From NCBI GenBank assembly GCA_964187785.1, contig OZ076409.1, forward strand, positions 29,390,001-29,454,000: a stretch of 64,000 bases of DNA, given 5' to 3'. A program made the translations under genes and the position numbers. Positions 7,900 through 53,826 of this stretch are shown one piece after another; the first letter of the stretch is position 1, and every line of letters begins with the position of its first letter. The notes under the pieces are model-generated. The model was not told the DNA's origin and made no database searches. It worked only from the letters and a program-made list of their open reading frames with translations. Origin of the DNA: Amphiscolops sp. MND2022 (taxonomy: Eukaryota).

Positions 7900-8391
7900 C
7901 GAATTCAAAAGTTGAAAAGATTGATGATTGATTTCCATTTCATGTAGACTTTCCTTCTGCTTCCTTCATCACAATGTTATCCATAACCTTTTGACTCAAA
8001 CTTTTTCATTATACACCCTGATCTTGTCCTTTGTCTTTATACTGGTGATGGAACTTCGCTTCCACTTTTTTATTTCTCTCTTTTGTTTCCTTCTTCATTC
8101 TTGCAATTTTGGCTCATTCGTCATTTCTGTCGTTTTTGGCCTTGTCCGAATTTTACCAACTCTATCAGTTCTTGCTTTTTCAATGAACCTGAGTGCTCTG
8201 GTTTCAGTGTATCTTGCATTCCTTCATGTCCGGATTAGCTCGATTGGGCAAAGTTGTAATAGTGTCGATTGATTACAGCTTCGAGCCTCTGGCTCTCGTT
8301 CTCCGACTTTACTTCTTGAAAAAAATCTTCTATATGCAAAGTCGGTCGTTCTCTAAAACAAGTCCATGGATCATTGCAAGTTTAGGGTATT
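7900..8391 (-). mobile_element. 3' part of old host Gypsy element B, split by the 18-kb provirus
   Basis: Degenerate K/R/E-rich minus-strand coding relic directly beside the GTATT TSD, collinear with 26434-29263. Confidence 0.5.
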
Positions 8392-11300
8392 TGTAGGATT
8401 TTTGACCATTTTTACATATACATATGAAGTTTATTTAAATCATTACTCAGCAAGGTTTATCAAAACGAACCAGGGGCGATATCCACTAATCACATGAAAG
8501 AGTCACATAGATAAAAAATCAAGTAAATGACGACAATAATTCACCCAATAAATCCAGTGCTTGCGCAGTTGTTCTTTTGATGCTTGAGGGCCCACCGCTG
8601 AGCAAATTTCCAATTTCGTAATGCCCCTCTGCCTTGTATTCGTAGATTTTCCTTCAGGTGCCACGTCGTACTCTCACATTGTATTCGTCCAACGTCCTCG
8701 TAATGATAGTTGAATCCGCGATGGTAGAAGCGTCCCACCCCGACAAATTAGTTGGCTTACCTGTATCTAGAATGAGGACGGCATGAGGCCGCAATCTAGG
8801 AACATAAGTTAAATCCCCCTGGCCGCTCAATGGTAAATCTTAAACAAACTCGCCTCCCGTTCACGTGGTCCCTTTTGAAAGAAATCAATAAAACTATTAG
8901 CATTATTACAGCAACGTTCTAATAAGCGGGAAGAACTATTAGTAGTAGTTGCACCCCATATCTTAACTCCCGTATGCAAAAGGGCATAAGAAACGCCTCC
9001 ACAAACTTAAATATGCGCATACGAAAACCAAGTGCCCTGTACTAATAAACCTATACAACTAGTTACAATTTGATCAATAAAGGAAAAAGAAGTAAGTCAA
9101 TTAGCAAAATCCATATCTCCCTGCATAGAATTAACAAAGTCACGAGTTACAAAATAATTTGGGCCTTTCGTAATATTCATTGAAGATGATCAATATCATT
9201 CTCAGAATCAAACCAAGTCAAATCGGATCTATCAGATCGTTGCTTTAAAACGCCTCTAGGCTGAGCATTCACGCCGGCAACAATGCAAGGCTGCGGGGGA
9301 GAGATTGAATTAAAATTAACAGGGGAAATAGTAGAGAAATGCAGCCGAAGTTCATGAATTATAGTCAAGCCAGAAACAGTATTATTAATACTAAAACCAT
9401 TGTAAATCTCGTTCGTACGTTCAACCACACCCTGACTGTGTGTTGAGTAATTAGTAGAGTACTTTAAAGAACGAGAAAATGAAGAAGCAGCCATTTTTCA
9501 CAGTGTATAGAGATTCAGTCAAATCGCTATATTAATACGTGTATTTGGAGGCATGTGAGAGTGAAACTTCACAGTGCGCGGTATAAACAATGAATGCAAC
9601 TCACCAAAGCGTGTCAGAAAGCGGAAGAATGGAATTGAGATCGCGCTGTGGATGGCTGTACGCATAGTTAATAAGAAAACGGCCGCCGCACACTTTGGAA
9701 TTATCCCCTCTGTTTATGCAAATTAAAAATTAAAACCCGATTTCTCAAAGATTAAAAAAGATAGCAACAAAACGTTTGCAGCATTCGATAGCCCGTCTAA
9801 AGGAGCGCTTGAGTTGCGAATATGAGCACCGTGCAACAACGGGAACCTATTGGGTAGAAGCATTGAATATAAGCTCTTGTAAAATTTTGACAATTTTCCA
9901 AAAACGAGTTTCCTTTAAAACATTCGTGTGATCACTACAGTTGTCAAAAATTTTTCGCATATGACGTAAACTAAAGTTGAACAAATGTCCTAACTTGTGG
10001 TGAATGGAAAAGAAATAATATTACGCAGTTTTTGAGATTTGACCCAGCAAACGTTAAAAATGGCCCTAAAATGGCCCTAAAATGGCCAAAATAGCCGTGT
10101 TTCGCGTGTTATCGCTTAGTACTCAACGTATAAGCGTACAATAGCCGCGTCAGTTGCAGCGTAGTTCTGAATTGAAGTGAATGAGTGAACGAAACAATAA
10201 ATAGAGTGCTGCGGCGCGCTAGCGAGAATTCCAAGAATTTGAAGTTGAGAATTTTCGTTGTCAGTAGTGAAATCGACTTACCAAAATGCTAATCGTTTTC
10301 GCACGTTTTGGACAATTTCGAGCTGAACCTTTCCGGTACACGCACACGAGTCTGGCGCACGTCGTTTAGCAGGAGCGTTTTTCCGAAAAAGGACCTGGTG
10401 TCAAGATATTGACCTCTAAATTTGGAGGTTATGTCACCAAAACTTAAAAAAACCTCTTTCAGAAAAAGTGTCACCAAATGTTGTTGAAACAAGCAAGAGA
10501 CGTTATCTAAATTGCAAAATACTCCTAATAGCTTGAGCTAGCGATGTGAATAGGCCCCCAGCCTTTATAGTCCGAATTGCCAGAGTAGCAGCCCTCCAAA
10601 GTTGAGAATCCGTGCAAAAGTTGGTTTGTGATTTTCGACTACGAACTTTAAAGGGCGTTTTCCACTGTAAAGGAGTTGAAACAGAAAGATAGCCAAGAGT
10701 AAATATTTGTAGCTCTTTCACCGGACTTTCACAACATGTTCTTGATTTCAGCCTTCAAAGATATGAACATTTAGTTTTTGCCCTTCAAAAGTGAAACACG
10801 AGAATCGACTCAATAGAGTTTGAATTAAAATTGCCTTTTAGGTCATTGTATTGTGTTTTGTTTTCACTCCAAGACCAATAGAGAATTTGCGGCGAGTTGA
10901 TTCTTTCGATATCTTCGATATCAACTCCATCCTCATGGAAACACAACTAAATTTTGCTAAAACCCTTGCTTATTGTTTTGTTGTGTTATATGCCTCCTAA
11001 TATTCTCCGCTATTATCGATGATAAAATATTATTCACTCTATTATTCGGTGTTGTGAAACTGTTTTTGTGTCTTTCAATCGACTTTTTTATTTTTTGCGT
11101 ATGAATTAAAGTTCAACCTGCTTCTTTTCATCAGCGATTAGACACCCTAAAACAGCTCAAGAGTAACGAGACAAACCCCCTGAAAGACGGTAAAATAGCA
11201 AAGATGTAAAGATCGTGATTTCCTTGTCACACTTACCCCCAACCTCCTTCGGTTAAGTTGATTTGTCTCTTCTTCGGAGTTAATAAAAATTTATGAAGAT

Positions 11301-11407
11301 ACTCAGACAGTCCTAGTCTCGTGTATGGTACCTACGGGTTCAAATGAGTTGTAGTGGAGCTATTCTCACAAATAGTTAAAGCTACTGGAATAACGAAAAA
11401 TCCTACA
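8392..11407 (+). repeat. 5' LTR (3016 bp)
   Basis: TGTAGGATTTTT...AAAAATCCTACA; collinear with 21186-23092, 24779-25308 and 25859-26433. Confidence 0.95.
8519..9494 (-). pseudogene. Decayed antisense ORF (~320 codons) inside the 5' LTR, unknown product
   Basis: ATG 9494 (MAASSFSRSLKY...). With about two frameshifts and a few stops it continues ..ITKGPNYFVTRDF..LRPHAVLILDTGKP..LGELLSSFT* (8519). Homologous copy in the 3' LTR. Confidence 0.55.
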
Positions 11408-11408
11408 T

Positions 11409-11426
11409 TGGCGCTCCTGGGTGGGC
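11409..11426 (+). promoter_or_regulatory. Primer-binding site, tRNA-Asn-like
   Basis: TGGCGCTCCTGGGTGGGC, 1 nt after the LTR end; 16/18 match to the complement of the vertebrate tRNA-Asn 3' end as recalled (TGGCGTCCCTGGGTGGGC). Confidence 0.8.
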
Positions 11427-11519
11427 TTCCTTTGTGTCTTTGTTATTACCTGTTTCCTTGCTTCACTTCTTTCCTTTCCCTTCCCTTCACCCCTTTGAGT
11501 TGCTGAAGTTTTTCTCACT

Positions 11520-12950
11520 ATGCCAGGAGACGAGAAAAACGAGCAGCAGATTTCTCCCGTCACCGAAGAAGATTCCAACGGCACCCACACCCTTAGTACG
11601 GTAAACCACTCCTTAGTGAGTCCACTAAACGTTCCTTCGTAGGATTGGCCGACGCGGCGAATGAGCGTAAACAAGATGCCTATAGGCAGTTGAAAGAAAT
11701 GGAAAAAGACGTGAAAAGATTTAAAATCGAAGAAGAATTAGTTTCGGACGACTCTTTGATCCTTGAACATGAAACTAGAAAACGACAAAAACCCTTGATT
11801 GAAAGAACGCCCATACAACCAGAAAAATTCCATAGTAAATATTACAACCGCTGGAGAAATTGGGTAAGACACTTCAAAGCAGTTGCTAAAGCCAATGGGT
11901 GGACCGGTAGTAAAAAAAGTGCAGCAAAGCCTACTTGTGTAATATCTTGGGCTCTTGAAGAATTTGACACTGTCCCCCGAAGGTATGTTGACAAAGAACC
12001 GGGTTGTCATCCCCCACCGTTGATGAACTCCGTGAAGTTCGAAAACCCAAAATGCAGCAATATCGCAGCCAGCGAGCCACGCGGTCAGGATTTACAGCAG
12101 ATAACAATGAGAAAACGAAGATTTAAGGGACTATTCAAGAAGGGTACGCCAGCTCGCCGACATAGTTTTCCTCGAAAAACCCCTCCGCGAGCGTGACCGT
12201 GATTTCGGGGAAACTTTGCAAAGAGCACAGGAACTCAAAGCAATCCACAAGACGCAAGAATCAAAACGCGAGCGAAAACCCGATAAACTGCGCTACTCAC
12301 AAGACGAATTGTAGGATCCCGATATAATGAAAGCGGACTACTTTGAATAACAATCAAATTGAAGAAAAATTCGCAGCTCTACAAACTTCGTTACCTACTG
12401 TAGCAAGTCGTTTTGACCGTTTCAAAAACTCCATTTGCCAACAAATCAGAGCAAATGTCCAAGCAAACTGAACAAAGCTTGAAACAAGCAGAAGCGTTAG
12501 AAAGTTCACAACAGCTTTTCGGCGGGCTGCCCCCGAGTTGGCAGCGTGCCCGTTTTTAAGCCCCTTTCACTCCTAATGTTCATGCGCCTCTGAACAGGGT
12601 GGGATCGTTAGGTCAGTTAAATATCTCCCACGCCCTCCCGAAAAAGCAGAGTGCTACAATTGTAAGACGACAGGTCACTACGCTAAACAATGCCCGAATC
12701 CTCCGCGGCCTATTTTTTTAAACTACCGGCAGCCGTATATGCAGTAGCAGGCTCTACTCGCGCTTGCGATTCGATCGTTTCCCCAGCTGCAAGTCAGCGT
12801 GTTCGTTCTAGGTCTAGGAATAACGATAGCCGTTTGGGACATCGAAATTGCAGAAGGCGGATCGACTTCGAAAGTTGGAAACAAATGTGTGATGAGTTTA
12901 GTCCTGGACATATTGCAAACAAAAATTGCCCATAGCAAATACATCACGGG
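11520..12950 (+). pseudogene. gag: gag (disrupted), with CCHC zinc knuckle
   Basis: ATG 11520; capsid-like WRNWVRHFKAVAKANGW; CYNCKTTGHYAKQC at ~12652-12693. Confidence 0.85.
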
Positions 12951-12959
12951 GGCAACGCT

Positions 12960-15900
12960 CTTAATCTCCTAAGAATCAGAAAGCCTGTGTTGTTGGGCCA
13001 AGATCGACACCGGCGCGAGCAGGATTTTGATGAGTTTAGAGTTTGGTAAAACTATTGGTAATCCAATAGCTCAAAACCCCGGTCGCTTAACGGGTCCAAT
13101 AGCCAATGAGATGCCTACCAAAGGTATCGTAAAAGCAGAGGTCAAAATCGGAACTTGCTACCGATGAATTTGTTGTTGTAGAAGATCGCTATCCAGAAAT
13201 CATGATAGGTTTAAAACTCATGATGGAAAACCGATGTACGACCGACTTAGTCGATCAAAAACTAACGATTACCAAAGATGATGGTTTCATCATCAAAGTA
13301 CCCATACAAGTTTTAAACGGGTATGTTCTTCCTCCGGAAGATGACGCCTTCGTTTGCGAAACGGTACCCCGTACTGACACAGTGTGAGCGGCCTCCAAAA
13401 TAAACAAAAACCTCGAAGAGGACGTAGAGGAGATTTTAAATTTAGCTACCCTTGGCCTCAAGAATACCGGAATAAAGGAAAAATTGTGAAACCTAATTCG
13501 TGATTTTAGAGACGCGTTTTCTCTGTCGTCGGACCCTTTAGGAACCGCGGTAAGAGTAGAACACCACATAGACATAGGCGATGCGAAACCGTTCAAAATC
13601 TCGCCTTATAAAATTGCTCCACACAAATTAGAATCAGTTCGCGAAGAAATTCATGAGATGCTCGATAAAGGAGTAGTTGTACCAAGTAAGAGTCCTTTTA
13701 GCAGTCCCATTGTTATAGTACCTACGAAAGATGGCTCAAATTGAATGTGTAGAGACTACCGAAAATCGAACGATGTTACAGTAAAGGACGCGTATTCGTT
13801 GCCTCGGATCTGTCATACGATTGATACATTACAAGGAGCGGCAATCGCCTCCTCTCTCGATTTAGCAAGAGGCTATTGGCAGATTCCAGTCGCGACCGAA
13901 GACCGCCACAAAAAGGCGTTTTGTACTCCTGTTGGAATATTATGCGAGCGCTTGAAAATGCCGTTTGGCTTAACGAAAGCCCGCCAACTTTCTAACGGAA
14001 CATGAACAACATCTTTTAGAGATCCCTGTATAAACATATGCTCATATTCCTAGATGATGTGTTGACGTTTAGTAAGACTCCAGTAGAACATTTGGAACAT
14101 TTGGAAATAGTGTTTAGAGTTGTGCGCAAGCCCAGGTTTCGTCCTAAACCGAAGAAATGTATTCTGTTTCGCACAGAAGTACACTATTTAGGTCATGTAC
14201 TTAACAAGGAAAGAATCCAACCAGATCCGAAACAGTTAGCGGCAATGGGAGCCTCCGACCGACGTCGCGGGATTTCGTTCATTTGTTGCCGTCTGCAACT
14301 ACTACCGGAAACTTTCAAAACTTCGCAGAAGTGTCTCGTCTACTTTATTTGTTAACCAGCAGAAGTTTAAATTTCACATGGACCGGAAAATATGGAACAG
14401 CGTTCCTAACGCTAATGAAAAGGTTGTTAGAAGATCCAATTATGTCTTTTCCGAGTTTTGAAACTCCGTTCATTATTGATGCCGATGCCAGTGATACTGC
14501 GCTTGGCGCAGTTTTGTCGCAAGTGATTGATGGGATAGAGTATCCGATTGCCTTTGAAACTCGAGTTCTAACTGAAACCGAAGTAAGTTATGCAACGATC
14601 AAGAGAGTAGCCCCAGGTGTTGTCCTAGCAGTCCAATAGTTTTGGCGGTACATTTGCGGGTCTAAGTGTATTATCCGCACAGATCAAGTCCTCAATGGTT
14701 GTTCACGCAAAATGCGGACAGAATGACTTTTCGAATGGTTCAAAAACTTCAGGAGTACGACTACAAAAACGTACATCGTTCAGGTGATGAACATTGTATC
14801 GCAGATGGTCTTGGTCGAAAACCAAATGACGTACCGCATTGACTCCCCGGTGAGGAAGAATCGTTAGAGAACTAATTGCGGAGTTCACAGTATTCGAAAG
14901 TGCTTTGTTTGAAGCAGAAGGCGATCTCCGCGTCGCCCGAACCACAGCTCGTGAGAAATTTGAAACGTCAGATGAACCTCAGATGATGTAGCTCGGCATT
15001 CAAAGATGCAAATTTCTCATCCCCCAAGAGAGGTCGTTCGTTATCGAGTTTTTTTGACTCCCAATTCTTTAGTGTTAAGTGTATCCGCAGACATGAGAGT
15101 AGCCAGTTTTCCCATTTGTGAAAACGTATTGTCATTTACCGCCTTTCTCATAGTCGGTAAACCGTGTGGTATTTTTTCTCGTGTACCGAGACGCTGAAAA
15201 AGGACGTTACTTGTATGTACTTTGTATGTATCACCAAGTATTGTGAAGGAGAAGTCGCCAAAAATGATATGTTGAAAGAATGTCTACTGAGCGTAAAAGA
15301 ACACGCTAGCTCCCATGGATTTTCCAAACTTGCAAGGCCCAGAATAGGTTGCGTTGATGATGACTTAGAATGGATGAATGTAGCTATTTGTCTGGAGGTA
15401 GTGTTCCAAGATTCGTATTTTACAATCTCTGTGTATACTCCGAGAGATCAAATGCAAATGTACCCCTCAGTTTCGTCAAGACGAGGTATTTGACGTTCCG
15501 CAAGCGTAGATTCGGCATGTTCCGTTGTCGCCGTTGAGGAAATGTTAGTATCAGAGCAAGTGGGGGGCATGTATCGTGGACAAGATCCGATAACGACCGA
15601 GCGTATGGTCAAACAATGGATGGTACTATGGGAATTTTATTCCGTAAAATGGTACGACGTGGAAATCGAGAGATTAGACATTAGAATATTTAGGGTCCAA
15701 CCCTATTCCCCGAGACGTCGCCAAAGTATGGTGTTGCCAGAGGCGCTGGAGCTTTGGAGTATATGGGACCAGGTCGCGCTAGCTAAGCAAAGCGAGTCCT
15801 CTATCGGAAATGGAAACCTAGGAATCGTGACCACGAAATATGGCAGGCCGTAGTTCCTTCGACTATGAGAGCTGAAGTGTTGTACCTGTACCAGTTACAT

Positions 15901-17348
15901 GACTCCCCTCTTAGTGGAGGTCATTTTGCAGCTGATAAAACGTTATCGAGGATAAAACAGAGATTTTGGCGGCCTGGTATATTGCAACATGTACGCGTTG
16001 CGCGGCGAGATCAACGCCTGGAAAAGGTCGAAAAGCTTACTGACAAACAATTGAAGCAAAAGCGCCGTTTCGTATTGTTGCCTCAGATATTGTGGGACCC
16101 GTAACGCTAGAGAAAAAGTCACCAGCGCGATACATTTTGGTCACTTCCGATTTGTTTACAAAGTATGCGGTTGCCGTTTCTTTGAAAGACATGACGGCTA
16201 AGACGGTGGCCACGACTTTAGTCGAAGACTGGAGTTTGAAAGTTCGGGCGCCCGATATTTTACATACTGATCAAGGAGCCAATTTCAATATCGAAGTGGT
16301 GAAGGATTTTTGTCAAGTTTTTATGATCGATAGAACTAGGACGTCCCCGTATCATCCAAAAGAAAATGGTCAAGTTGAACGATTCAATAGAGTTATTGCT
16401 GACACTATTTCTATGTATTGCGCCAAAAACCGCAAGATTGGGATCTCTAGTTACCCATGTCAATTTCGTGTACAATACCACCGTGCATAAAACTCTCGGC
16501 ACGACCCCGTTTTCGATGTTGTATGGGAAAAAGCACAAAATCCTATTGATTAGTTCTATCCGAAACCTCCGGGCGACCCTCGTTTAGAATTAGGCGAGGT
16601 AGGAGCTGCGTTGAGTGACAAGTTATACGAAGTGCACAGGCACGCGCAAATAACTATGGGAAAGAGCAACGTCGACAAAAGGATTATTATCGGAGAAAAA
16701 TTCGCGGAGAAGGCTTTAAGACAGGAGACTTGGTGTGGTTAATCCAGCCACACAAAACGAAATCCCGAAAATTCTATTTTCCTTGGCACGACAAGGCCGC
16801 TGCGAAGTGTTAAGCCAGACAAGTGAGGTGAATTTATCAGATTTGTAAGCCAGGTTCACCGGAAAAATGGCAGAATATCCATTTCAATTGTCATAAGCCA
16901 TTTTTAGGCGAGTACCTCCCAAAACAATCCCAGCGGATAGCGGGAAAAACAGTACCGAGTTATGTAGAAGTCGAGGGTGAGTCTGATTCATTCAACCAAG
17001 AAACCGAAAATAGACCATATCATGTATCCCGCACTACTTCGGCGGAAACTCAAGCCAATAAAAATCGGTTGCGCGTGTCGTTCCACAACATTCCCTGCGT
17101 GATAAGTGCCGAAAATGACAGAGACCCCTCTGACAATATACATAGATGTCCCCGAACAGTCAGATGAATCTTCGTTTACTGTTTATAATGTTTATGAAGA
17201 AACTGACGAGAGTAGATTTACTCCGCACCCACGTGATAATGAAGACAGAGAAAGCGATTGTTCAGATTTGCTGTTGATCAAAACGACACGGAGTTGTCGA
17301 CCGCCATTGCGCTTTGGCATAGACGAGTACGTGGTCAACCCAAAATAA
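12960..17348 (+). pseudogene. pol: pol (disrupted): protease, RT, RNase H, macrodomain, integrase
   Basis: IDTGA (~13003); DLARGYWQI, MPFGL and IFLDD (RT); DADASDTALGAVLSQ (RNase H); HDSPLSGGH, SDLFTKY, TDQGANF, NGQVERFNR (integrase). Confidence 0.93.
15006..15493 (+). other. TARG1/OARD1 (Poa1p-like) macrodomain inside pol
   Basis: SLVLSVSADMR...YFVCITK...LKECLLSVKEHASSHGFSKLARPRIGCVDDDLEWMNVAICLEVVFQDSYFTISVY parallels the OARD1 pattern SLAHCISED..YYLITK..L.AMK.H...G...LSMPRIGCGLDRLQW..V...IEEVF.....ITVY. One frameshift. Confidence 0.85.
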
Positions 17349-17723
17349 CATTAGTGTCTTCGGATGATGGTCAGGTGAGTTGAGTCATCCGATGTAGTGA
17401 AGCTCATCATTCGTTTAGCCGTTGGCGAGCATGACTAAGCGAATTACTGTAAGCTCGGACAGTTCATCACGAGGTGTTGAGTCAGAAAAAATAGCATCAT
17501 CTGTGTCGCTATTGGCTCTGCCTCATTCTTCAATTTAACTTCAACTTAGACACTCGCTAGAATAAAAAAAATGTAGTACTTATCCCTACAATCAATTCGA
17601 ACGACTTTTGCTTTCCTTCTCTGTAACTGCGAAATGAAAAACACCCAATATTGTCATATTTTGTTATCGTTCGATATTCCTATTATCGTTTCTAGTTCTT
17701 TTCCGACTCGCTAGTTTAGTTGT

Positions 17724-19845
17724 ATGATGAAACTTGTTTTACTTGTTATCGTTACTTTCACGCGTTGTACTCTGGGAGACGAGGACCATTTCGACCCTTA
17801 CGATTTTCAGAGGAGACCCAATCAACCAGGGATTGTAAATAGCACTCAATCTATCTCCGTCGAGGCATTCACTCCAAAACTCCCAGTTGTACTCGTTTAG
17901 TCCAATAAAACCATTTGGACCTGGATTGCTTTTCTTAAGATGTCTCATCTAGACCCGGAGCCTTTGAATGAAATTTTGGATAAGGCATCAAACCGGCTAG
18001 TCTCCCTTGATCTTCGTATGTTTGCCCGAGAATGCGCTGATCCTCACTTGTTCGAGTATCGGAAATTTTTTTGCGCGATAACCTGGCAGAAATTTTTCAA
18101 GGTCATCAAATGACCCGACAAGATTGACTAGCAATGCGGAGAGCACTCACCTATTTTCTGAATCATACTGTAGATGACATTCCGTTGGAAAACCTAATCG
18201 TTATATCAGATCTATTGTGGGAGCTATTGCAGGATTGCTGGTAGGAAGTGAGTTAGCCCAGGTCTTTTTACGCCTTATATTTGGTTCGGTGTTAAATAAA
18301 ATTTCAAGCTTCGTTGTTGACCTGATCCCATTTGGATCAGTGTATCGAAGTAAAGACCGTGAAATTATTGAAGAGTTGGCTAGAGAAATTGAAGTGTTAC
18401 AAAATGAGGTAGAGTATTTGAGAACTGAGCTGTTGGAAGCGATAACCGTACTTTTACCGGCTGACGTGGAAGGCAGAAAGTTTTTGACTTTAAAACAATC
18501 CCTCGTGGAAAACATCCAAATGTTGAAAAGCACAATTAATGGGGCGATAGATGAAGTATACGATTTTGTATAGCGAGCTGAGTCTGTCTCTAAGATAACT
18601 CAAGATCGACATCGCAATACATTGATCATTGCCGCAACATTCCAAAATTTGACCACTCAGTATAGAAGAATTGTTAAGGAATTCAATCAAAGACGCATCT
18701 CGTTGTCAAATGCTAGACGAAGCTATGTCATCGTTGGTTCACGGCTCTTTGCCTATATCCCTTATTCCGCCATTTTAAATTCTTATCACGTTACTGGTCT
18801 AAATGAGGCTATCCCCAGGTTATTCATCGTCGCTTATTATTTGTTTGAAAATTAAGAAACACGTGTTTGACGAAGGAAGGAATGCACATGTTGATTGAAA
18901 TTCCTATGTACGCGGGACACGGAATTCATGAGGTTTACCGGACAACGCCAAACCCTCAACCAATCCAAATTCCGAACGCGCAACGCACTTTCAACTCGCG
19001 AAAACACACTTATTATTGTCTTGGGACAAAACGAATTTTGCGGAAGTAACCGAACAACAGTTGTGTACGCATTGTTGGGGCTCCCATCGGCTTAGGCTAT
19101 GCAAAGACCTTTTCTCGACTACTAAATCGCAGAAAACGACATGTCTCACCGGATTGTTTTTTAATTTTCTCGCCACCGTATTGAAATTGCGTGCACAAGA
19201 AGTTGTAGCCCTTCCACAGCATCGGCAAGCAATATATCTATCGACTCGACCTACCTATTATTTTCTGCCAAAGCAGATTTCACTACGCAAAACATGCCCG
19301 GCACGGTCGATTATAGAGTTTCAGGTGTCAAAGTTGTCTAGTTCGACACATGTGTGAGGGATTTTTGCCGACCCCCCTAATACGACTATTGTTTGAAAAC
19401 TTGAAAGACCTAGAAAAAATTATCCTCCATCTTTAATGGGCGTTGTTCATCAAGAACTGTTGTCCCTTTCGAAATTATACTTGGCAGGATCGCCAGACCG
19501 CGCAATCACGGAGGAAATGCTTGATGCAATTGCCAAGTCATTTTTGAATGAAATTGAAAAAGTTCATACAACAGTTACAAAGAAAGTGTGGAGAGACATT
19601 GTTTTACCATGTGTAGTCGCGTTAATTGGTTTGATTTTATTTGGATTGTGAGCTTGTTATGCTGGGCCATCAAAAGGGTCAATTATACATCATGCAACAG
19701 TATATACATCGATTGCTGGGTGGGAGGTGAAGAAAAGAAACGGAAGCAGGCTAGAATAGCGGAGCAGCTTCAACATCTTCCCACTACATCTGCCACCGTA
19801 GAAGAGAAAGTGATTACTATTGACCTTTCCCCAATGGAGATTTAA
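17724..19845 (+). pseudogene. env: env-like class I fusion glycoprotein (disrupted)
   Basis: Signal peptide MMKLVLLVIVTFTRCTLG; RYIR (R-X-X-R, 18199-18210) followed by fusion peptide SIVGAIAGLLVG; heptad repeat DREIIEELAREIEVLQNEVEYL; Cys-rich ectodomain; C-terminal TM IVLPCVVALIGLILFGL; sequons NST and NLT; lies between pol and the PPT. Confidence 0.85.
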
Positions 19846-21174
19846 AAGCAGAAGTCACATCCCGAATGAGTATCTTCCTCAAAACCGTGAGAACAAAACG
19901 TTAACTTGTGCTGTTATTTAATTACTCCGCCCCACCCCGTATTTATTCGCCCTCATAACTTAACTGATAGGTCACTCCCGCTCCTTTTCCCACTTAGACA
20001 AATGAGGGAACTTGTTTAAATCAGAGATAAGCAGGACGCCAATCAGATTGAAATGATGAGAAAAAAAGACTTTGTAAGATAACTCAAAAACCCAGTATAA
20101 AACTTATTTCCTAGCTGAACAGTTGTTCGTACCTACATCCACTTCCAAGTTTTTGTTAGGATCCTAACATGAACAATTGAATTCGAAAATGCAACCAGCA
20201 CAACCTGCTAATAACTATAATATCCAATGTTGAAACACCGCAGCTTTTGTAGCAACCCAAATGTATTGCTCTGCTATCGCAGAGACGCGTAATGCCAACA
20301 TGCCTATAACTGCGGGAGTTCTGTCCCCCACCTTACGAACGGGAAATCCCCTGTCTTAGAAACTTAAGTTTATACTGTGAAATGACTCAACAGATTTTAA
20401 TGGCAGTTAGTCAGGCTTCCCTTGAGAAATAGGAAAGAGTCATAGGGACTCTGACAAGGATTCTTGCCTTGCCAGATGAAAGCCCACGAGCAGAGGGGAA
20501 CCCCCTCAGCACCTGATTTCATTGGACAGGGTCCATCGGTCATCAGCATATGTGGAGTTGGGTGCAACCTTGAGAGTCTCCCTGGGACCGATCATTTCAG
20601 GTTTACCCTCATCCGCCTCATCGCCCTCGTGTTGACATTAATTCTTTCCAAAGAGTCATGTTCAGACATTTAGATATCGAGAGTTAAACCTCGACTACGA
20701 CGACTGTATTGCCTACTCCAGCCACTGTCAGCAGCTCAACCTCTACTTCGCGCGCGGGAGCAGTGTTGGTCGACGCCGATAGTAGCGACACGGACAGCGT
20801 TAATATAACAGCGGCAGTGGTATTTCCATCACAGTCGAAGAGAAAATTTTTGCAGACAATGGATCCCCGAGTTCAAGGAAGCAGTTCTTCTTTGCCCTCC
20901 ACCTCCTAAAATTAGAGATATTTGTGAAAACCCGATATAAATCGGAGCACTTTTGTTAAACTCAGTATAATATTATGTTGTGAAAATATGATGTGCCGAA
21001 TCAAAGTATTAATGATGTGAAGTGGTTGTAATTCAAGAGCTCTTGTGTTCACAATAGCTAGAAGGAAGAATTACACAAGGCAAAATTAATACAGACTGGC
21101 CAACAGTCTAACCAATCATCTAAGACTACGCTAAAAATTTAAATAAACCAACTACTCAGGAGAGTAGTAGGCCC

Positions 21175-21185
21175 AGTGGGGGGAA
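21175..21185 (+). promoter_or_regulatory. Polypurine tract
   Basis: AGTGGGGGGAA immediately before the TG of the 3' LTR. Confidence 0.85.
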
Positions 21186-21304
21186 TGTAAGATTTTTGAC
21201 CTGTTTTTACATATACATGTAGTTTATTTAAAATATGACTTATCAAGGTTTATCAAAACCGGGGGTGATATCCACTAATTACATAAAAGAGTCAAATAGA
21301 TAAA

Positions 21305-22298
21305 TTAATAAGTAAATGAGGACAATAAGTCTCCCAATAAATCAGTGCTTGCGCCGTTATTCTTTCGATGCTTGAGGGCCCATTGCTGGAGCAAATACCC
21401 AGTTTCGCAATGTCACCCTGCCTTGTATTCGTAGAATTTTCCTCCAGGGGCCACATCGTACTCCCACATTGTATTCGTCCAACGTCATCGTAAAGATAGT
21501 TGAACCCGCGATGGTAGAAGCGTCCCACCCCGACAAATTATTTGGCTTACCTGTATCTAGGATGAGGACGGCATGAGGCCGCAAACTAGGAATATAAATT
21601 AAAACCCCGGCTGCTGAATGGTAACTCTTAAAGAAATCGCCTCCCGGTCACGTGCTCCTCTCTGAAAGAAATCAATAAAACTGTGAGCATTATTACAACA
21701 ACGTTCTAATAAGCGGGAAGAACTATTAGTGGTATTTGCATACCATTTGTTAATTCCCGTATGCAAAAGAGCATAAGAAGCGCCTCCTCCAACTTTAATA
21801 TGCGCATACGAAATCCAAGGGCCCTGTACTAATGAACCTATAGAACTAATACAAACTGATATGTTACAAATTGATCAATAAATGAAAAAGAGGTAGGTCA
21901 TTTAGCAAAATCCATATCTCTCTGCATAGAATTAAGAAAGTCACGAGTTACAGAATAATTCGGGCCTTTCGTAATAATCATCAGAGGATGATCAATATCA
22001 TTCTCAAAATCGAGATCAATATCATTCTCAGATTTATCAGATAGTTTCTTCAAAACGTCGCTAGGCTGAACATTCACGCCGACAAGATACAAGGCTGCGG
22101 GGGAGAGATTGAATTGAAATTTTGTGGGGAAATAGTAGAGAAACGCTGCCAAAATTCATGAACTTTAGTGAAGTCAGAAACAGTATTATTAATAATAAAA
22201 CCATTGTAAATCTCGTTCAAACGATCAACCACACCCTGACTACGTGTTGAGTAATTGGTAGTGTACTTTAAAGAATGAGAATTTGAAGAAGCAGCCAT
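21305..22298 (-). pseudogene. Second copy of the LTR antisense ORF
   Basis: ORF pieces 22074-22298, 21898-22152 and 21357-21584 match the 5' LTR copy. Confidence 0.55.
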
Positions 22299-23092
22299 TT
22301 TTCACAGTGTACAGAGATTCAGTCGAGTCGCTATGTTAATACGTGTTTTGAGGGTATGTGAGAGTGAAACTTCAGAGTACGCGGTATAAACAATGAATGC
22401 AACTCACCAAAGCGTGTCAGAAGAAAGTGAAAGAAAGAAATTGAGATCGCGCTGTGGATGGCTGTACGCATAGCTAATAAGAAAACGGCCGCCGCACACT
22501 TTGGAATTATCCCCTCTGTAAATGCAAATTAAAAATAAAAACAAGATTTCTCATAGAATAAAAAAGATAGCAACAAACGGTTTGCAGCATTCGATTGCCC
22601 GTCTAAAGGAGCGCTTGGGTTGAGAATATGAGCACCGTGCAACAACGGGAAGCTATTGGGTAGAAGCATTGAATAAAAGCTCTTGTAAATTTTTGAGGAA
22701 TTTCCAAAAATGAGTTTCCTTTAAAAAGTTCGTGTGATCGCTACAGTTGTCAGAAAATGTTCGGGTATGACTTAAATTAAAGATAAGAATGTTCTAACTT
22801 GTGGTAAAAGGAAAAGAAATATTATTCAGTAGTTTTTGAGGTTTGACCCAGCAAACGTTAAAAATGGCCAAAATAGCCGCTTTTCGCGTGTTATTGCTTA
22901 GTACTCAACGTATAAGAGCACAATAACCGCCTCCTTTGCAGCGTACTTGCGAATTGAAGTGGATGAGTGAACGAAACAAAAAACAGAGTGCTGCGGCGCG
23001 CTGGCGAGAAACTCCAAGTATTGAAAGTTGAGAATTATCGTTGTCAGTAGTGAAATCGACTCACCAAAATGCTAACCCCCCGCACGTTTTGG

Positions 23093-24766
23093 GCTTTCAA
23101 AAAATTGACTATAAGTGAGTAATACCAAATTCTGTTTACAGAAAAGTAATTCTTAGGAAAGAACAGGAAAACAAAATTTGAAACACATCACAACAACATG
23201 TATTGCGTAGATTTGCAACTGTTATTGATTATACTTCTTATTTATTTTGTTCCTTGTTTCCAGAAAGTATTTTAGCTAATCTCCACTTGTTTCCGTCCAC
23301 GACGAGAGCATAATTGCCACAAGAAGTTTTGAGAGAGACAACTTCGATCAAGCCATAAATCTTTCCATGAAAAAATGTTTAGTTTCAGTGTTGACGGTTT
23401 TAATTCCTCACATGAAAGCATCAAATGATCCCATGTTTCAAATTCTTCTCCACATGCAAAACACAATAGGTGGAGTACAAGATTTTCAGCCACTTGTTTT
23501 GTTTATCTAAGTACGAGTTCATTAGAAAGCGACAAAGGAAGTTTTTATCAAACGAAGTGAGTTTTCTATTTTTCTAAATGTTTCTTATGACTGAGTACAA
23601 AAGATTGGTGCAACATTTAGTTTTTGTTTGATGTGGCTTCTATTTTTTGAGATAATGGAACGTTTATTGGGAAGTTGTTCAAAAAATTATATATCTCTTT
23701 CGAAATTGTCTCTATTGTTTTTTTTAAGTGTGGTAAAATACTTCTGAAGTGTTATTTCTTCTGTTTTCAGTTCGAGTATCTTCATGTGCTCTCTCTGAAA
23801 ATGTTTTTCTAATTCTGAATATGTTTTTGATCTTTTATAGGCATTGAGGTATTTTTCTTCCCTCGGGTTAAGTGCTAGGAATTTCAAATTCTTGATTTTT
23901 GCAGCTAAAAAGAAGTATTTCGAATAATCTTTAAGATTTAATCACCCTTCTTCAATTGGTAACGAAGGAAATTCTCTGCTAATCTTATGTTTTTCGTACT
24001 GCCAGAAGACGTTTGTTATTTTTGATTGAACTTTCCGAAGATAACTTTTTGTCCAAAATCTCGTGTCTTAGATAGTGAATTATTTCAGAATAGACAAACG
24101 TCTCGATGTTTCTGGTTTTTGCGCGGAATGAGCTGTTTTTTTAATACAAAAGTTTCTGCTGAGATAAACGCATTCATTATTGTGTTTTTCGTTTTTGTAT
24201 TTAGACTTTTATTTAGCGAAATGAATACTCCAAGAAATTTTTTTTTCACTTTTATTATTTTTTCCTAGGCATGCAATTTTTCTGCTTTTGAAAGGATTTA
24301 GTTTTGAAATTGTTGAATTTGCTTCCAATCCTGCTACTTCGTTGAAATGGTCCAGTATAATCAACATTTTTCTGAGAGATTTGTTAAAAAGTCTGATCGT
24401 TGTATCGTCTGCGTAGGCGATACATTTTGTTTGTTGTTTTGATTTTATGTATTTTGGTTTTTTAATTCTCTGCAGAAGGGGCTCAAGGCATAGGAAAAGA
24501 TCATTGCTGAAAGGGGACAACCTTGTCTTACTCCTCTATCAATCTTGGATTTAGTAGAAATTCCATTTTTCATTCGATTGAAATCAAATGTTTCCTTGTA
24601 CATGAGCATAATCATTGTTTGAGTACTTTTATCAATTGGACTTTTTTCAATTAGTTTTTGTATAAAACTACGTTCTACGCAATCAAAGGCTTTGCTAAAG
24701 TTGATTGCTATAAGTGATTGGTTTCGCGTTGTTTCCGGGGCGTAATGTTGAATTTTGTATCCTGGG
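23093..24766 (-). mobile_element. 5'-truncated non-LTR retrotransposon (L1/Tx1-like RT plus C-terminal zinc finger)
   Basis: FSKAFDCV, RGVRQGCPLS, YADD, CFACGEEFETWDHLMLSC. 12-bp TSD CGCACGTTTTGG at 23081-23092 and 24767-24778; the site is single-copy in the 5' LTR. Confidence 0.9.
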
Positions 24767-25800
24767 CGCACGTTTTGGTTGATATCGAGCTGAAGCTTTC
24801 AGGGTAGACGCACACGAGTCTGTCGCACGGCGTTTAGCAGGAGCGTTTTTCCGAAAAATGGCCTGGTCTTGAGCTATGACCTCTAAACTTGGAGGCCAAG
24901 TCACCAAAAATTGAAAAATGACCTTTTTCAGAAAAAGTGTCCCCAAATTTTGTTGAAACAAGTCAAACACTTTATCTAAAGTGCAAAAAACTTCTAATGG
25001 CTTGGGCTAGCGATGTATAAAGACACCTAGCCTTTGTCGTTCAAATTGCCGGAGTACCAGTCCTCCAAAGTTGAGATTTGTGCAAAAGTTGATATGTGAC
25101 TTTTGACAGCCAAATTCAAGGGCGTTTTTCACTATAAAGGAGTCGAAATAGAAAGTTGGCCTCGGACTAAGCTTTTGTAGCCATTCTAATGTACGTTTAA
25201 CTGATGCATTTGATCGGAACACACTAGTTTTTGCACTTCATTTGTGAAACACGAAAATCGACTGTTTAGAGTATGAATTAAAATCGCCTTTTAGGTCATT
25301 GTAAAGTGTTGGAAGTTATTTCCTTCAGCCATATTTTGCTGAAGAGAGTTGTCACGAGCCGTGTGGGAAAAAATCACAATTGTGCAAATGTCAACTGGTG
25401 GAACTGAGTAGAAAAAGTTCTTCTGATGAACCTTTAGTACCGAAGTAGGAAAAACTATATTGCTCAACACTTAGTCAGGTCCCCAAAAAGGAAAGAAGAC
25501 GAAAAATGAATAATGATATTACCAAACCACCGAAAAAATAACTTTGGCCAACTTTGCGCCATTTTAGCGACACACAATGTGAGTTGAAATCTACAGAACG
25601 TATTGCTGCTTTGAGTCCAATAGCATCTCGCATCAGACACCGGACTATCGAAATTGCAGGTTTCCTTCGTTTGGCCGGTTAGCCCGTGCCTTCATCCTAA
25701 TAACCTGAAGCAGCCTGATATATTGCTACCCCTCCGTCCCCTAGTACGGATTTCGACCCGGAAGAGGGTGGACAGCTGGTCTATCGTATTACATGTAAAA

Positions 25801-25860
25801 TTGCCTAAGTGGGCTTAGAATACACGGATTTGCCTAAGTGGGCTTAGAATACACGGATTT
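25801..25860. repeat. Tandem duplication of ~29-30 bp (TTGCCTAAGTGGGCTTAGAATACACGGAT)
   Basis: Direct reading of the sequence. Confidence 0.9.
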
Positions 25861-26433
25861 TGTTTACACTCCAAGACCGATAGAGATTTTGCGGCGAGTT
25901 GATTTTTTCGATATCTTCGATATCAACTCCGTCCTCAAGAATACACAACTAAACTTGTTGATGAAACCCTTGTTTTTTGTTTCTTGTGTTATTTGCCTCC
26001 TAATATACTACGTAATATCATCCGCTATTATCGATGTTACAATATCATTCACTTTATTGTTCGTGGTTGTGAAATTGTATTTGTGTCTATTAATCGACTT
26101 ATTTATTTTATTTGTTTGTTGCGTATTAATTAAAATTCAACCTGCTTCTTTTCATCAGCGAAAAGGCACCCTAAAGCAGCTCAAGAGTAGCGAAACAAAC
26201 CCCCTGAAAGACAGTAGTAAAATAGCAAAGATGTAAAGAGCGGGATTTCCTTGTCACACTTACCCCCACCGCTTTCAATTAAGTTGATTCGTCTCTTCTT
26301 CGGAGTTAATAAAAATTTATGTAGATACTCAGCCAGTCCTTGTCTCGTGCATGGTACCAACGGGTTTCATTGAGTTGTAGTGGAGATATTCTCACAAATA
26401 GTTAAAGCTACTGGAATAACCAAAAATCTTACA

Positions 26434-29263
26434 GTATTCAGTATTTGGCGTTTGTGTTTCGAACGCGTATTTCTCATCCTTTCCTATCTATGATCCTATT
26501 GCAAAGAAAATGCCTGATAATTCGTTAGCTTTTCTATAACAGTACCTCCTTCTGTGTTAAACACCGCTCATTTGCTGTTTCAATCATCCGTTTTACATTC
26601 CTATTTTCAAGACGGTCTTTCATTGCACGTGTAATATAATATGCCAATTATAGCTATTTCTACACATACAATCCAATTTTCCACTTCTAGAGCTGTTCAC
26701 GTTTCCGTAAGTGATAAATCTGGTTTTCGATACTGAACAATTCTAAAATTCTGACACTTTATCTGTAGTAGGATTTGGTAAAAATGCTTCCGGCTACACG
26801 GAGTTACGTCCAACTGTCTCCAGGAAAACACTTTTTGCCGATTGGTGCATTTTGAAATGGGCCGACAAAGTCCATCGCAAAATCGTCATTTGCAAATGAC
26901 GATTTTGCGATGGACTTTGTCGGCCCATGGGTTTAGGTTTCCAAAATTGTTTGAGACTATATGCACTTTAGAATTTTATCTGCAATTTTGCACTGCGGTC
27001 AGTTATTGGCCTTTTCGACGTCATCATGGTAGATTCTCGGCCACTACACATCTGCCGCATCTATCAGCCTTGCGTCTCGCCCTGTGTGTCCGAAATGAAT
27101 GACTGGTTTCTGTCGTAACTTTCGGTGTAGCCAAGCGCTTTTCTAGGTAAAGTAAGTTATCTGAATCTAATAAGAAATAAAAATGTTTCTCTCCTCTGAT
27201 CCGGTAACATGGCAATCTGAGCCGTTTCCTTCAACTGTTCAAGGTTCAATATTTCTTGTGAATAAAGATAGTTCTCATTAAAAGCTTGCACAAAGAGTTT
27301 GCCAGTTCGCGATTCCCTGGTGTTTTGTGATAATTTGCCAATTTGCAATTGTTTGCTAAGACTCTCTATTATCGTTTCTGTCGAAAAATTGTTTCTCAAA
27401 ACAATGCTAATTTCGTTCACGACGGTCAAAACACTGTTCTCAGCTTTGGAAGGCTACTGGTAGTTTTTTCATTTCCTATTTGTTGCCGTTTTGTATTGAT
27501 TGCTCTTATTTATTGATTCATTCTTACGTTAGTTTTAGACCAATCATTAAGCATTTGCGCTGATTTAAGAATCCTTTGATCCTTCAAACCAGGATGGATG
27601 TCTTGACAAATAGCCTGTCATTCCCATGGTTCATCCTGGTGCTTAAGCAACCGTTAAATCAAATAGTACTCAAAAAACCCTTTCGCAAAACTACAGCTAA
27701 CAATTCTAATAGTTCCAACAATTGAACTTCTGACTTAAACTCTGTTAGCACTCGTGAGCCATAAGGTATTGGTTTCCTGCAGTTTCGTTCTATTGATTGA
27801 AGTAGACACCAAGCCGTTGTTTACTTGCACAAAGAAGATTTCTCTTTTGGGAATTTCTTTCGCGTGACCCTTCTTGCTTCCGACTTTTCATGCAAAATTT
27901 ATTCTCATGTTCACTTGTCCACGATCATTGTAAATCTTTCTTCAAAATATCTCGAATAGATTACCTGTGTTGGCTAGTGAAGACGCATCGAGAGCTTTCG
28001 ATAACTCGCAACTTTTGCCAAATGATGCGCTTTTATTCTTTTGGGTACAAATGAAGTGTCATCAATGAACACGAATACTTCTCTAAATCTAGCTAATATA
28101 GTGTCCATTACCTCTTGAAATTTGTCACCACTTCTAGACCATTACAAAACTATTACAAAACGGTATAATCTTGTAGGTTCGCATCCAATTATCTGAACAT
28201 GGCAGTGTTTCCCTGTTAAGAAATGTAGTGGAAGTTGTACAATCGTAACTCGGAGAGCACATCACCCAGCATGTCCAGAGGTTTTTCATTTTGTACGGCG
28301 CCGTGTCACACTTTCCTTCACCTGAAACCTTCAAAACCATCGGGTCTTTTCCAGAACTTCTGTCGTCCCGGTAGTCATCTTCACAACTCCTTGTGCTCGT
28401 CTGACATTTTAGTTCTATTTGTCAAAATGGCGGGCGGTGGATTTCTTGTTTATTCTTTGAATTCTTTTGGAATTTCAATATCTCTCGAAGTGGCCTTCAT
28501 TCTGCAGAAGTTACAAATGGTGCCCAGATCTTTGAAGCTATATAGGTGATTTGCTGTGAAATTGATTGCTCCAAATCGCCAGCTTTTTTCTGCTTTGCTA
28601 ATATCGCGACTGCTGGTTCTTTTTTACCATTGTTGTTGTACATGGTTGACCGATTGCCGTGGCAACCCATCCTCAAATGCGATAGCAAACAGCAGTGCAT
28701 CTCGTGGATTTTCTGTGAGTTTAGAGCATAACTTTTCTTGTCTTGTTTCTAAGACATACTCAAGATGAATATGTCGTACAGCAAACCTTGCGTTTGATCT
28801 CCAAACCAAAAATGCACGTTGCCGCTAAGCCGTTCAAGATAATCACGAATTGAGGCAACAAATGATTTGGTTTCTTCCTTTTAGCCAGGACCCTATGACG
28901 ATCCAGCCTTCTCTACCTACGAAACTCGAAGCATGTTCCGCTATTCTCCAGCAGTTCGATTAATTCGATTGTGGAAATGTTTATGTGCTGGTATTTGTCC
29001 ATTAACAATTTACGTCCAATTTTTCCAATAGCAAGGGATAACAGACTTACATTCACATTCCCCAACAATCCTGAAACTTGAGAGGTTCTCCTTCGCTTGT
29101 TGACTTTGTGATTTCAAACATCGAATCAGAAAATTTGGCAAGCATTGTCAGCTCGAAAAACTTAACCCATTGCTCTCAATCTGTCGTCATAGTTTTTCCG
29201 CATCCTGCTAGAAGTATCGAATTCCAGGAAACGGTGCAAACGTGGACTCTTTTTGTTCATTAG
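26434..29263 (-). mobile_element. Old, internally deleted Gypsy element B (gag, RT and integrase relics)
   Basis: Minus strand DKFQEVMDTILARFREVFVFIDD (~28058-28126); gag-like QEKLCSKLTENPRDALLFAIAFEDG and WEQWVKFFEL-like relics. Confidence 0.7.
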
Positions 29264-37760: not shown

Positions 37761-38133
37761 TTCTCTCAGTAATACAAAGAATGTTTTGAATTTCGGCAAA
37801 AATCTCTCGTTGCTTCATGGGGCTAAACTTTTGATGATTCCATTTGCAATTGTTCCAAAGTACGCCGCTAACATCAAAACAGATCCAACTGGGGAACCAG
37901 TCTACCATGCACTACCTGGATTACAAAACATTTATCCACTTTTACTTACAGTTGTTGCCAGTTACATTTCGAATGGAATTTATTTCGGAGCTTTACATTT
38001 TTTGAAGTATTTGCTTTGGTAGATTCAAGTCCTTCATCGACAACAGCAAAAAACTCAACAAAAATAGTTATTCATGAATCAACCTTTTGAGGTTTTTAGA
38101 AGCAATTGAAAGTAAACAAACTAACTAACTAAC

Positions 38134-49600: not shown

Positions 49601-50147
49601 TCCAATATTTTGAATTTTTTCCTGTGAAGTTATATGATGGCGAAACGGAAACGAGTTTCTGCTCGCAAAACTAGTTTTCTCCAGCCAAAATCAGCTATGA
49701 AAGCAAGGAGGTACTCTTTGACCAAATGAAAGTTTCGGAAAGAAATACAGAGTCGAAAAACTGAAATGAGGTAATTTCCACAATCAAGAAGAAACCTCGT
49801 CAGTTCCATATGATCAAATGTAACAAAAAAAGTCACCCTCAAGACTCGGGACACCTATTCTTATCACAGAAAACATGACAAACTAAAAACTGCAAAAAAA
49901 GTTTTTCAAAATTTTTCTCTTTTTTGTGGTGAGTCAGATAGTGCCAAAAAAAAGGAAATTGGCCAGCCATCGCCGAATTTATAAATCAGGGGTTTCCTTT
50001 AAAATGGGCTAAAATGAATCAAAGATTTTCTTTCTTCGAACTTCTTTGCGTTTTTATAGTGCATTGGCTGTTCTTGAGCCTCGAATTTATTTACTTGTAG
50101 AACAGTTTGGGGCGGAAAATATCTCGCTGCTCAGCGGGCGACTTGTT
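46625..50147 (+). repeat. AT-rich interspersed repeat, copy 2
   Basis: Same ends and internal tandem units as copy 1. Confidence 0.7.
49153..49487. repeat. Tandem duplication of ~165 bp
   Basis: AAATTGGTGTCCA..GGGATCGCCCAACTTTCC occurs twice in tandem. Confidence 0.85.
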
Positions 50148-50183
50148 ATATAGCTAATTAAATTCGATAACGTTTCATGAAAA

Positions 50184-50299
50184 ATAAGACGCCCGCTGAG
50201 CATCGGGATGTTTTCCGCTAAAATTGTAACGAATCAGAACGGGTTCGAACCCACGACCTCGTGTCTGCCAGGCAGACACACTACCAACTCAGCCAAAGT
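50184..50299 (-). mobile_element. tRNA-derived SINE-like short element
   Basis: Minus strand A box TGGCTGAGTTGG and B box GGTTCGAACCC, no acceptor stem, followed by the GCGGAAAA..GCTCAGCGGGCGTCTT tail. Confidence 0.6.
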
Positions 50300-53159: not shown

Positions 53160-53789
53160 TTAAAAAGTTAAAGAAAGTCAGCAATGAAAGAGCACTTGGC
53201 TTCTTCGAAAAGATAAAGGAAATTGGTTTTGAGAAACGTTGTCGATTTAGCAGTTCATCACTATCGAGTTCTGTCATTTGCTCTCTAGTAAGGAGGTCAG
53301 GGAAGCTGGTTTCATTATCTTTGTCACTCATTATTTTTTGTTCTGCTGAATTAATCCTGTTAGTTTAGGATCTGGTAACTACCATAAGAATTCAAATGAC
53401 TGGGAATTTAAGGTTTTATTATTACTGAATACTTGAAATTAAATGAAGTTTTAGATTGAAAAGTTTTGCGATTTTCTAAGTCTGATTGCAACTGTTCGTC
53501 TTACTAGCAAAATTGTAATGGCTGCTTTTAGATTAGACGTTTTCCTCTTTCCAGCGTCTTAGCACCTTCAGTAGTTGCCAATTTTAGTACTACCATCAGC
53601 AGGTGTTAATTTAGCACCAGTTATAATCTTTTGTGAAGAGAACGACCGCGTGTATCGGTCGTCGTAGCAACCAATTATCTCACTGGTAATCACACTACTA
53701 CTGTACGCTTTAATGGCCTTAGCACCTACTTTTACATAACTAATTCGGGTTCAAAGTAACGACTGTGTGATTCCGTAGTCATGTTAACT
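53160..53789 (-). mobile_element. Truncated LTR element: short AGT..ACT-type LTR (53619-53789), TGG-initiated PBS-like site and gag start
   Basis: Minus strand AGTTAACAT...ATTATAACT overlapping TGGTGC; ORF MSDKDNETSFPDLLTREQ from 53331. Confidence 0.55.
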
Positions 53790-53826
53790 TTACATTAACA
53801 TTGCATTCAATAACATGATGATATTT

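Follow-up and report, generated by a model that had tools for sequence, protein, structure and literature searches.

The interrupted reading frames at positions 17724 to 19845 of the window (the whole 64,000-nucleotide stretch of DNA analyzed here) are very probably the dead env gene of a Ty3/Gypsy element; in young sister copies, the intact gene codes for what is predicted to be a class I F-type fusion protein, which likely admits element particles to other host cells. This kind of element is itself known. What is new is the likely acoel host, a group unsampled by the survey of Chary and Hayashi (eLife 2026; PMC13524379), together with a large Env radiation and a set of accessory genes.

The window env copy and its element

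The original prediction described an Env-like gene split into many small pieces. All of these pieces are present, in three forward frames between 17724 and 19849, including a 58-codon signal-peptide piece that runs from an ATG at 17724 to a stop at 17898 and has a hydrophobic N-terminus. P0001, a natural 755-aa open reading frame (ORF) from a sister locus, covers the region colinearly: tblastn placed residues 1 to 755 on window positions 17727 to 19866 in six pieces (E values of 2e-149 to 1e-8), and the two DNAs are 79% identical over 2,135 bases. The window copy carries 14 frame-shifting indels (between ∼18063 and 19749) and five in-register stops (at 17898, 18125, 18571, 19728, and 19843). 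Because P0001 covers the region end to end, the gene is real; because of the indels and stops, the window copy is dead and unable to make protein. The colinear coverage and the conserved anatomy across relatives also rule out a chance assembly of motifs. Pfam analysis of the window env pieces gave no meaningful match. The features of the env copy are as follows.

17724-17900, plus strand: env piece 1, with ATG, predicted signal peptide, and hydrophobic N-terminus; 58 codons to the stop at 17898
17901-18198, plus strand: N-terminal (F2-like) subunit, helical, broken (tblastn, model)
18199-18270, plus strand: predicted furin-type R-x-x-R site (here RYIR), then the predicted fusion peptide, which is hydrophobic
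18349-18760 (limits approximate), plus strand: HR1-like heptad-repeat helices after the fusion peptide (periodicity, model helices)
18850-19396, plus strand: Cys-rich beta-sheet head (invariant Cys columns in alignment A3, pLDDT mostly 80 to 90)
19397-19660, plus strand: HR2-like membrane-proximal helices and predicted transmembrane anchor, the latter from ∼19598 (model, hydropathy)
19661-19866, plus strand: cytoplasmic tail, poorly conserved

The predicted cleavage site reads RYIR followed by SIVGAIAGLLVG (18199 to 18246). In the frame translations, the Cys-rich piece spans 18932 to 19354, and the last tail piece ends at 19845. The Cys-rich head region corresponds to the Baculo_F match region of the relatives. 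The signal peptide and transmembrane anchor were judged from hydropathy and by eye, with a hydropathy peak of 3.18 at P0001 residues 664 to 682.

The env copy lies within an 18-kb Ty3/Gypsy element (8392 to 26433) with the order gag, pol, env, and ORF4.

8387-8391, plus strand: left target-site duplication GTATT; the same 5 bases follow the 3′ LTR
8392-11407, plus strand: 5′ LTR of ∼3.0 kb with TG...CA ends, 79 to 86% identical to the 3′ LTR
11409-11426, plus strand: primer-binding site, complementary to the 3′ end of the host tRNA-Asn(GTT)
11520-12745, plus strand: gag, decayed (a sister copy encodes 464 aa with a single CCHC knuckle)
12750-17348 (start approximate), plus strand: pol, decayed, with protease, reverse transcriptase (RT), RNase H, macrodomain, and integrase (Pfam)
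15018-15442, plus strand: TARG1/OARD1-like macrodomain, broken, located within pol and flanked by RNase H and integrase (tblastn)
20189-20876, plus strand: ORF4, accessory gene, broken (277 aa in sister copies, L022:1648-2478)
21186-26433, plus strand: 3′ LTR, after a polypurine tract, split by a later insertion of ∼1.7 kb
26434-26438, plus strand: right target-site duplication GTATT

The element has features of a Ty3/Gypsy element (Metaviridae): LTRs with TG...CA ends, a target-site duplication, a tRNA primer-binding site, a polypurine tract, the protease-RT-RNase H-integrase order, and a Ty3-type RT. Upstream of env, Pfam matches occur in the order protease, RT, RNase H, integrase zinc finger, and integrase core. 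The best solved match of the RT-RNase H region is yeast Ty3 (E value of 1e-87), followed by foamy virus (1e-40) and MLV-type (1e-28) enzymes. A Bel/Pao or retrovirus backbone was ruled out by the pol Pfam content and the Ty3-like RT. A retroviral-type RT (Retroviridae, including lokiretroviruses) was likewise not found, as comparison with solved structures gave Ty3 as the closest RT instead. The primer-binding site is the same in the sister copies traced end to end (4/4). The corresponding tRNA-Asn 3′-end pattern occurs 346 times in the source genome (control, 0), and ARAGORN called tRNA-Asn at two of three loci carrying the pattern. At C7:47639204-47698977 of the source genome and beyond, tRNA-Asn-like 3′ ends are densely arrayed in tandem.

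The two LTRs of the window element differ by Kimura two-parameter distances of 0.12 and 0.16 in the two parts compared, and the insertion is thus old relative to those of the sister copies. The sequence that splits the 3′ LTR (∼23093 to 24770) contains a minus-strand RT fragment (PF00078, E value of 3.5e-10) and is probably a non-LTR element. Elsewhere in the window are dispersed repeats with units of ∼185 bases in both orientations (35600 to 37800, 46800 to 50200, 52600 to 56400, and 60000 to 63500), a perfect 72-base palindrome (26857 to 26928), and a 44-base inverted repeat (57412 to 57522).

Sister copies and selection on env

A DNA search of the source genome (1.07 Gb) with window positions 18100 to 18900 retrieved 41 matches, namely, the window itself and 40 others at 70 to 77% identity. 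Among 19 other loci examined, 14 contain an uninterrupted env ORF of 755 codons, one contains an ORF of 711 codons, and four are broken. All four sisters that were traced to both ends are flanked by perfect 5-bp target-site duplications and carry LTRs of ∼3.0 kb, the segments of which are 96 to 99.9% identical when compared stretch by stretch. These four copies encode a Gag of 464 aa, and pol is uninterrupted in three of them. The sister elements were thus inserted recently. The possibility of a host-domesticated single-copy gene was ruled out by the 40 further matches and by the whole ORFs at many loci.

The env gene of the sister copies is under purifying selection. Across the 14 whole copies, the mean pN/pS ratio is 0.20 (91 pairs, which are not independent). 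When each variant codon is counted once, there are 60 synonymous and 47 nonsynonymous variants on 543 and 1,722 sites, respectively (P = 1e-12), and variants common to at least two copies comprise 18 synonymous versus 5 nonsynonymous changes. The region therefore does not vary freely among copies, and its variant codons are mostly synonymous per site. The window copy retains the same signature: its mismatches to a sister at codon positions 1, 2, and 3 number 106, 82, and 257 in env and 45, 38, and 111 in the RT-RNase H region, with 22, 22, and 21 mismatches at the three positions of the noncoding spacer. The third-position excess in env indicates that the lineage of the window element used env before this copy died.

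The predicted Env protein

P0001 matches no Pfam family (neither PF12259 nor PF07253). Searches of the PDB by sequence, using P0001 or alignment A1, gave nothing below an E value of 0.1, and protein-database searches with P0001 retrieved only unnamed close relatives, the sole cluster name being "hypothetical protein." Pfam Fusion_gly (PF00523) and Gypsy env (PF07253) were not matched in the 35, 20, and 28 proteins scanned, and none of 50 pattern matches among IMG/VR viral contigs was confirmed. The curated cutoff of Pfam Baculo_F (PF12259; 24.1 bits) was reached only by the distant relatives L038, P0146, and P0162. In a Baculo_F search of the source genome, one locus scored above this cutoff (L038; hhalign to the family, 95.6% probability). 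A genome search with L038 yielded 579 candidates, of which 150 were scored, and many lie in open frames of 740 to 810 codons. Among 28 database relatives scanned, two pass Baculo_F, two more score below the cutoff, and none matches Fusion_gly. A profile match to the solved "fusion protein" 9w4d had an E value of 0.021, and Atlas features led to Baculo_F, Fusion_gly, and Gypsy clusters at a recognition value of 1543, which is below the reliable range.

To describe the family, we used alignment A3, whose 34 rows comprise the ORFs of 20 diverse genome loci, the P0001 ectodomain, and 13 database relatives; its profile retrieved 2,989 clusters at an E value of ≤0.001. The alignment has 18 invariant columns, including six cysteines. 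An R-x-x-R motif followed by a hydrophobic 14-mer is present in 30/34 rows. Thus, the cleavage motif proposed originally holds across the family as R-x-x-R, but the exact RYIR does not: P0001 has R-Y-S-R followed by SIVGTIAG, a peptide slightly under the hydrophobicity threshold. This fusion-peptide stretch is of the least hydrophobic kind in the family and was modeled at a pLDDT under 50. A Cys-linked loop separates the fusion peptide from the first heptad. In the HR1-like heptads of P0001, hydrophobic residues occupy 8/9, 7/9, and 10/14 of the a/d positions, while the HR2-like periodicity is weak (11/19 versus 17/46). Prediction of a six-helix bundle from two natural segments in three copies each, without an alignment, scored 0.00, a value that counts neither for nor against such a bundle.

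An earlier ectodomain model based on 35 close relatives (pLDDT of 49.7) had no PDB match at an E value of ≤0.001, and the model from the more diverse A3 was used in its place. The A3-based model has a pLDDT of 72.5 and a pTM of 0.60, with low values confined to the N-terminal end, the stretch around the fusion peptide, and two loops. The original prediction had placed the protein in the class I layout of baculovirus F, errantivirus Env, and paramyxovirus F and had proposed fold similarity as a check. Foldseek bears this out, as do the relatives that reach Baculo_F: 49 BFVD matches were found at an E value of ≤0.001, of which 47 are viral glycoproteins or unnamed viral proteins. The top rows are an abalone herpesvirus protein, chu-related glycoproteins, and baculovirus F (2e-17 and 8e-16), followed by lispivirus and paramyxovirus F proteins (respirovirus F, 1e-7). 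These matches are of a predicted monomer, with TM-scores of at most ∼0.5, large rmsd, and 9 to 16% identity in the structural alignments. Among the best 50 VIA matches from 48,161 solved chains, all rows aligning ∼300 or more residues are F proteins of RSV, hMPV, NDV, or PIV, at middling Z scores of 6.7 to 8.5 (rmsd of 5.6 to 9.5 over 299 to 387 residues) and below 12 short helical-bundle rows; no herpesvirus gB chain is among these 50. Taken together, the motif anatomy, the sequence bridge to Baculo_F, and the fold matches suggest that Env would work like a class I F-type fusogen with predicted fusion activity, though P0001 itself falls outside the Pfam families.

Uncharacterized abalone and ranid herpesvirus proteins (BFVD A0A145VUZ2, Q14W34, and A0A1X9T5E6) match the F-type model at E values of 8e-18 to 1e-7 (rmsd large), which hints at class I F-like proteins in some aquatic herpesviruses.

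By analogy with F proteins and the Drosophila gypsy element, a plausible life cycle can be outlined. In the sister copies, env starts ∼390 bases past the pol stop, so a spliced or separate env message is likely; expression would follow from such a separate, probably subgenomic message. A furin-type protease would then cut Env, as in F-protein biology and in gypsy (PMC13524379), and Env trimers would sit on Gag-Pol particles. Refolding of the heptad repeats, as in F proteins, would fuse the particle membrane with that of a neighboring cell. As with gypsy, the element may in this way be carried from somatic cells into the germline or stem cells.

Origin, accessory genes, and host group

The published survey reports 1,512 intact env-bearing Ty3/Gypsy elements in animals, with Env proteins of the F and gB types; the F-type env genes occur in most animal phyla, track pol, and are argued to be pre-Cambrian (PMC13524379). 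The window element fits this F-type class, having gag, pol, and an env with signal peptide, ectodomain, and transmembrane anchor that is whole in the sisters and broken here. The published F-type "ancient errantiviruses" likewise carry gag-pol-env between LTRs, with an F-type ectodomain, furin site, and fusion peptide, and show recent multicopy expansion and an env that tracks pol, as here (PMC13524379). Priming by tRNA-Asn also appears in two rotifer ENV_F elements of the survey table (PMC13524379). Relative to the survey elements, the present element differs in its 3-kb LTRs and in a fourth ORF after env (PMC13524379).

For 19 elements that carry both genes, the integrase and Env trees split into the same three lineages, with almost identical subgroups, although three lineages have only one unrooted arrangement, so agreement at the deepest split is trivial, and the Env tree is a quick version. 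Two of the 20 loci fetched were left out of this comparison, as they gave no integrase match. The moderately supported L072/L073 grouping differs between the two trees. Env and integrase distances are correlated (Mantel rho of 0.80, 0/2,000 permutations), but these 19 elements share history, and thus the value is no proof of coevolution. The three integrase lineages are only 24 to 37% identical, and synonymous sites are saturated between families. From the agreement within lineages and this saturation, any capture must be old, and env is likely a long-standing companion of pol that was passed on vertically rather than a recent acquisition. Tree agreement fits both inheritance from the first animals and an old capture within the host group.

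The original prediction had raised an independent env capture from an unknown donor family. In such a scenario, a virus family infecting marine invertebrates supplied an F-type gene to an ancestor of these elements, separately from insect errantiviruses and from the other "ancient" F-type lineages, and the gene later spread over the three pol lineages of this host group. The sequence matches contain no named relative, Env is ∼750 to 800 aa compared with ∼600 aa for the F-like Env of rotifer TelKA, and the top fold matches are scattered over an abalone herpesvirus protein, chu-related viruses, and baculoviruses; at 24 to 37% integrase identity, env may also plausibly have moved between pol lineages at least once. 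However, the absence of one standout donor is equally expected of an old lineage, the Env and integrase trees agree within lineages, the family is large (the 2,989 clusters) and grades into Baculo_F, and F-type env genes are described across animal phyla with no single viral donor (PMC13524379). We therefore consider independent capture unlikely, and the claim is not upheld by an Env that tracks integrase. A broader proposal, in which acoels own a large, still-spreading infectious group of "complex" elements that combine an independently captured deep F-type Env lineage with defense-countering accessory genes (the TARG1-like macrodomain, ORF4, J-domain, and JmjC proteins), comparable to the accessory genes of complex retroviruses, is similarly doubtful.

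Two further readings concern what the protein does. It might be a membrane protein that descends from an F protein but now serves a different purpose, for instance the blocking of receptors against related elements or cell-cell fusion in the host, and that no longer makes particles infectious; in this subfamily, the fusion peptide has a lower hydrophobicity than its counterparts in the other two lineages, and the cleavage site is a minimal R-x-x-R. We regard this as very improbable, since the ORF sits, at numerous loci, in full gag-pol-env elements whose insertion is recent and keeps its cleavage motif, heptads, cysteines, and anchor. The protein might instead be a class III fusogen, herpesvirus gB-like or chuvirus-like, the second kind of Env carried by Ty3/Gypsy elements; chu-related labels stand on several of the top Foldseek rows, one row is from abalone herpesvirus, and the survey ties chuvirus-like Env to gB (PMC13524379). 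Yet an internal R-x-x-R with a hydrophobic peptide and heptads is class I anatomy, the solved chains with long alignments are F proteins, and the Pfam links are to Baculo_F, which leaves this reading with a negligible probability. A predicted F-type fusogen, likely inherited with pol, is the reading that we retain.

Compared with known Env proteins, the present one resembles baculovirus F (PF12259) in fold (E value of 2e-17), but P0001 matches neither PF12259 nor, on the side of Drosophila gypsy-type errantivirus Env, PF07253. With paramyxovirus and pneumovirus F it has in common a signal peptide, R-x-x-R site, fusion peptide, coiled coil, conserved cysteines, and transmembrane anchor, but the scanned members have no PF00523 match, and the Cys-linked loop is a difference. 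TelKA Env of bdelloid rotifers is alike in layout but aligns to PF00523 over its full length, unlike the present Env (PMC5408684). The lokiretrovirus Env is also F-like and alike in layout, whereas the present RT is Ty3-like and not retroviral (PMC7947760).

Several accessory genes accompany env. The pol macrodomain of a sister copy (L021:6290-6850) matches human C6orf130/OARD1 at an E value of 1.6e-21, and the Lys and Asp that we take to be the TARG1 catalytic pair are apparently retained in the macrodomain alignment. TARG1-like pol macrodomains were also found in 7/20 related loci from two other pol lineages (L068, L069, L071, L078, L082, L085, and L087). The macrodomain bridges RNase H and integrase, where the survey elements have mini or pseudo RNase H domains, and the term "macro" is absent from the survey's main text (PMC13524379). 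ORF4 gave 71 matches and is open at 61 to 78% identity in other subfamilies; its mismatches between window and sister at codon positions 1, 2, and 3 number 30, 14, and 72. It is a conserved accessory gene under codon constraint and of no known family, with no Pfam match and no usable Atlas match.

In the second env lineage, an ORF with a coiled coil and a DnaJ domain lies downstream of env (L068:54-1199, L069:8944-9969, L070:145-1239, L071:252-1355, and L087:42-1160), with PF00226 above the cutoff in three of the five. Antisense JmjC-hydroxylase-like ORFs occur between pol and env at L078:5096-5995 and L084:4669-5565 (PF02373, E values of 6e-7 and 7e-4). In the third env lineage (L074 to L077, L079 to L083, and L086), 2.6 to 5 kb separates the integrase core from env, a gap that contains several conserved antisense ORFs, one of them a small predicted membrane protein. 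This gap exceeds the 1-kb limit of the survey's first filter (PMC13524379). Accessory ORFs captured beside pol or env are also described in rotifer Vesta and Juno elements (PMC5408684). Macrodomain ORFs are known from fish epsilon-like endogenous retroviruses, while here the macrodomain is fused inside pol (PMC4977317). Relative to Vesta/Juno and the fish retroviruses, the present element has env and accessory genes together.

The host group was assessed from the mitochondrial contig, which uses the invertebrate code (AAA for Lys, ATA for Met, and AGR for Ser in cox1). This code excludes true flatworms, echinoderms, ascidians, and cnidarians. In gene order, 4/12 signed adjacencies are common with the acoel Symsagittifera roscoffensis, a level that 532 of 200,000 random orders also attained; the comparison is of one contig against one acoel order, with nad2 assigned by position and sequence type (no Pfam match) and with rrnS and nad4L not located. 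The Symsagittifera order has been described as unlike any other (PMC2973942). From the code and gene order, we read the host as a likely acoel. The survey's genome list is without Xenacoelomorpha, and acoel-related terms are absent from seven of its supplements (PMC13524379). Among the papers listed in our literature search, there was no report of env-bearing acoel elements; subscription papers, Repbase/Dfam, and the survey's figure supplements and long table cells might hold one.

The claim that env-bearing Ty3/Gypsy elements predate the bilaterian split was made without Xenacoelomorpha, a key early-branching group (PMC13524379). The source genome likely fills this gap, with three deep pol lineages, each having a diverged F-type env and many whole ORFs. 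This three-lineage set makes the question of ancient inheritance or repeated capture testable in one tree. By itself, the window copy is of modest interest as a fossil, and its surroundings matter more. Acoel germ cells arise from adult stem cells. LTR elements are reported to make up about half of acoel genomes (PMC9911081). With this high LTR load and stem-cell-derived germ cells, it becomes testable whether an enveloped cell-to-cell route feeds the load.
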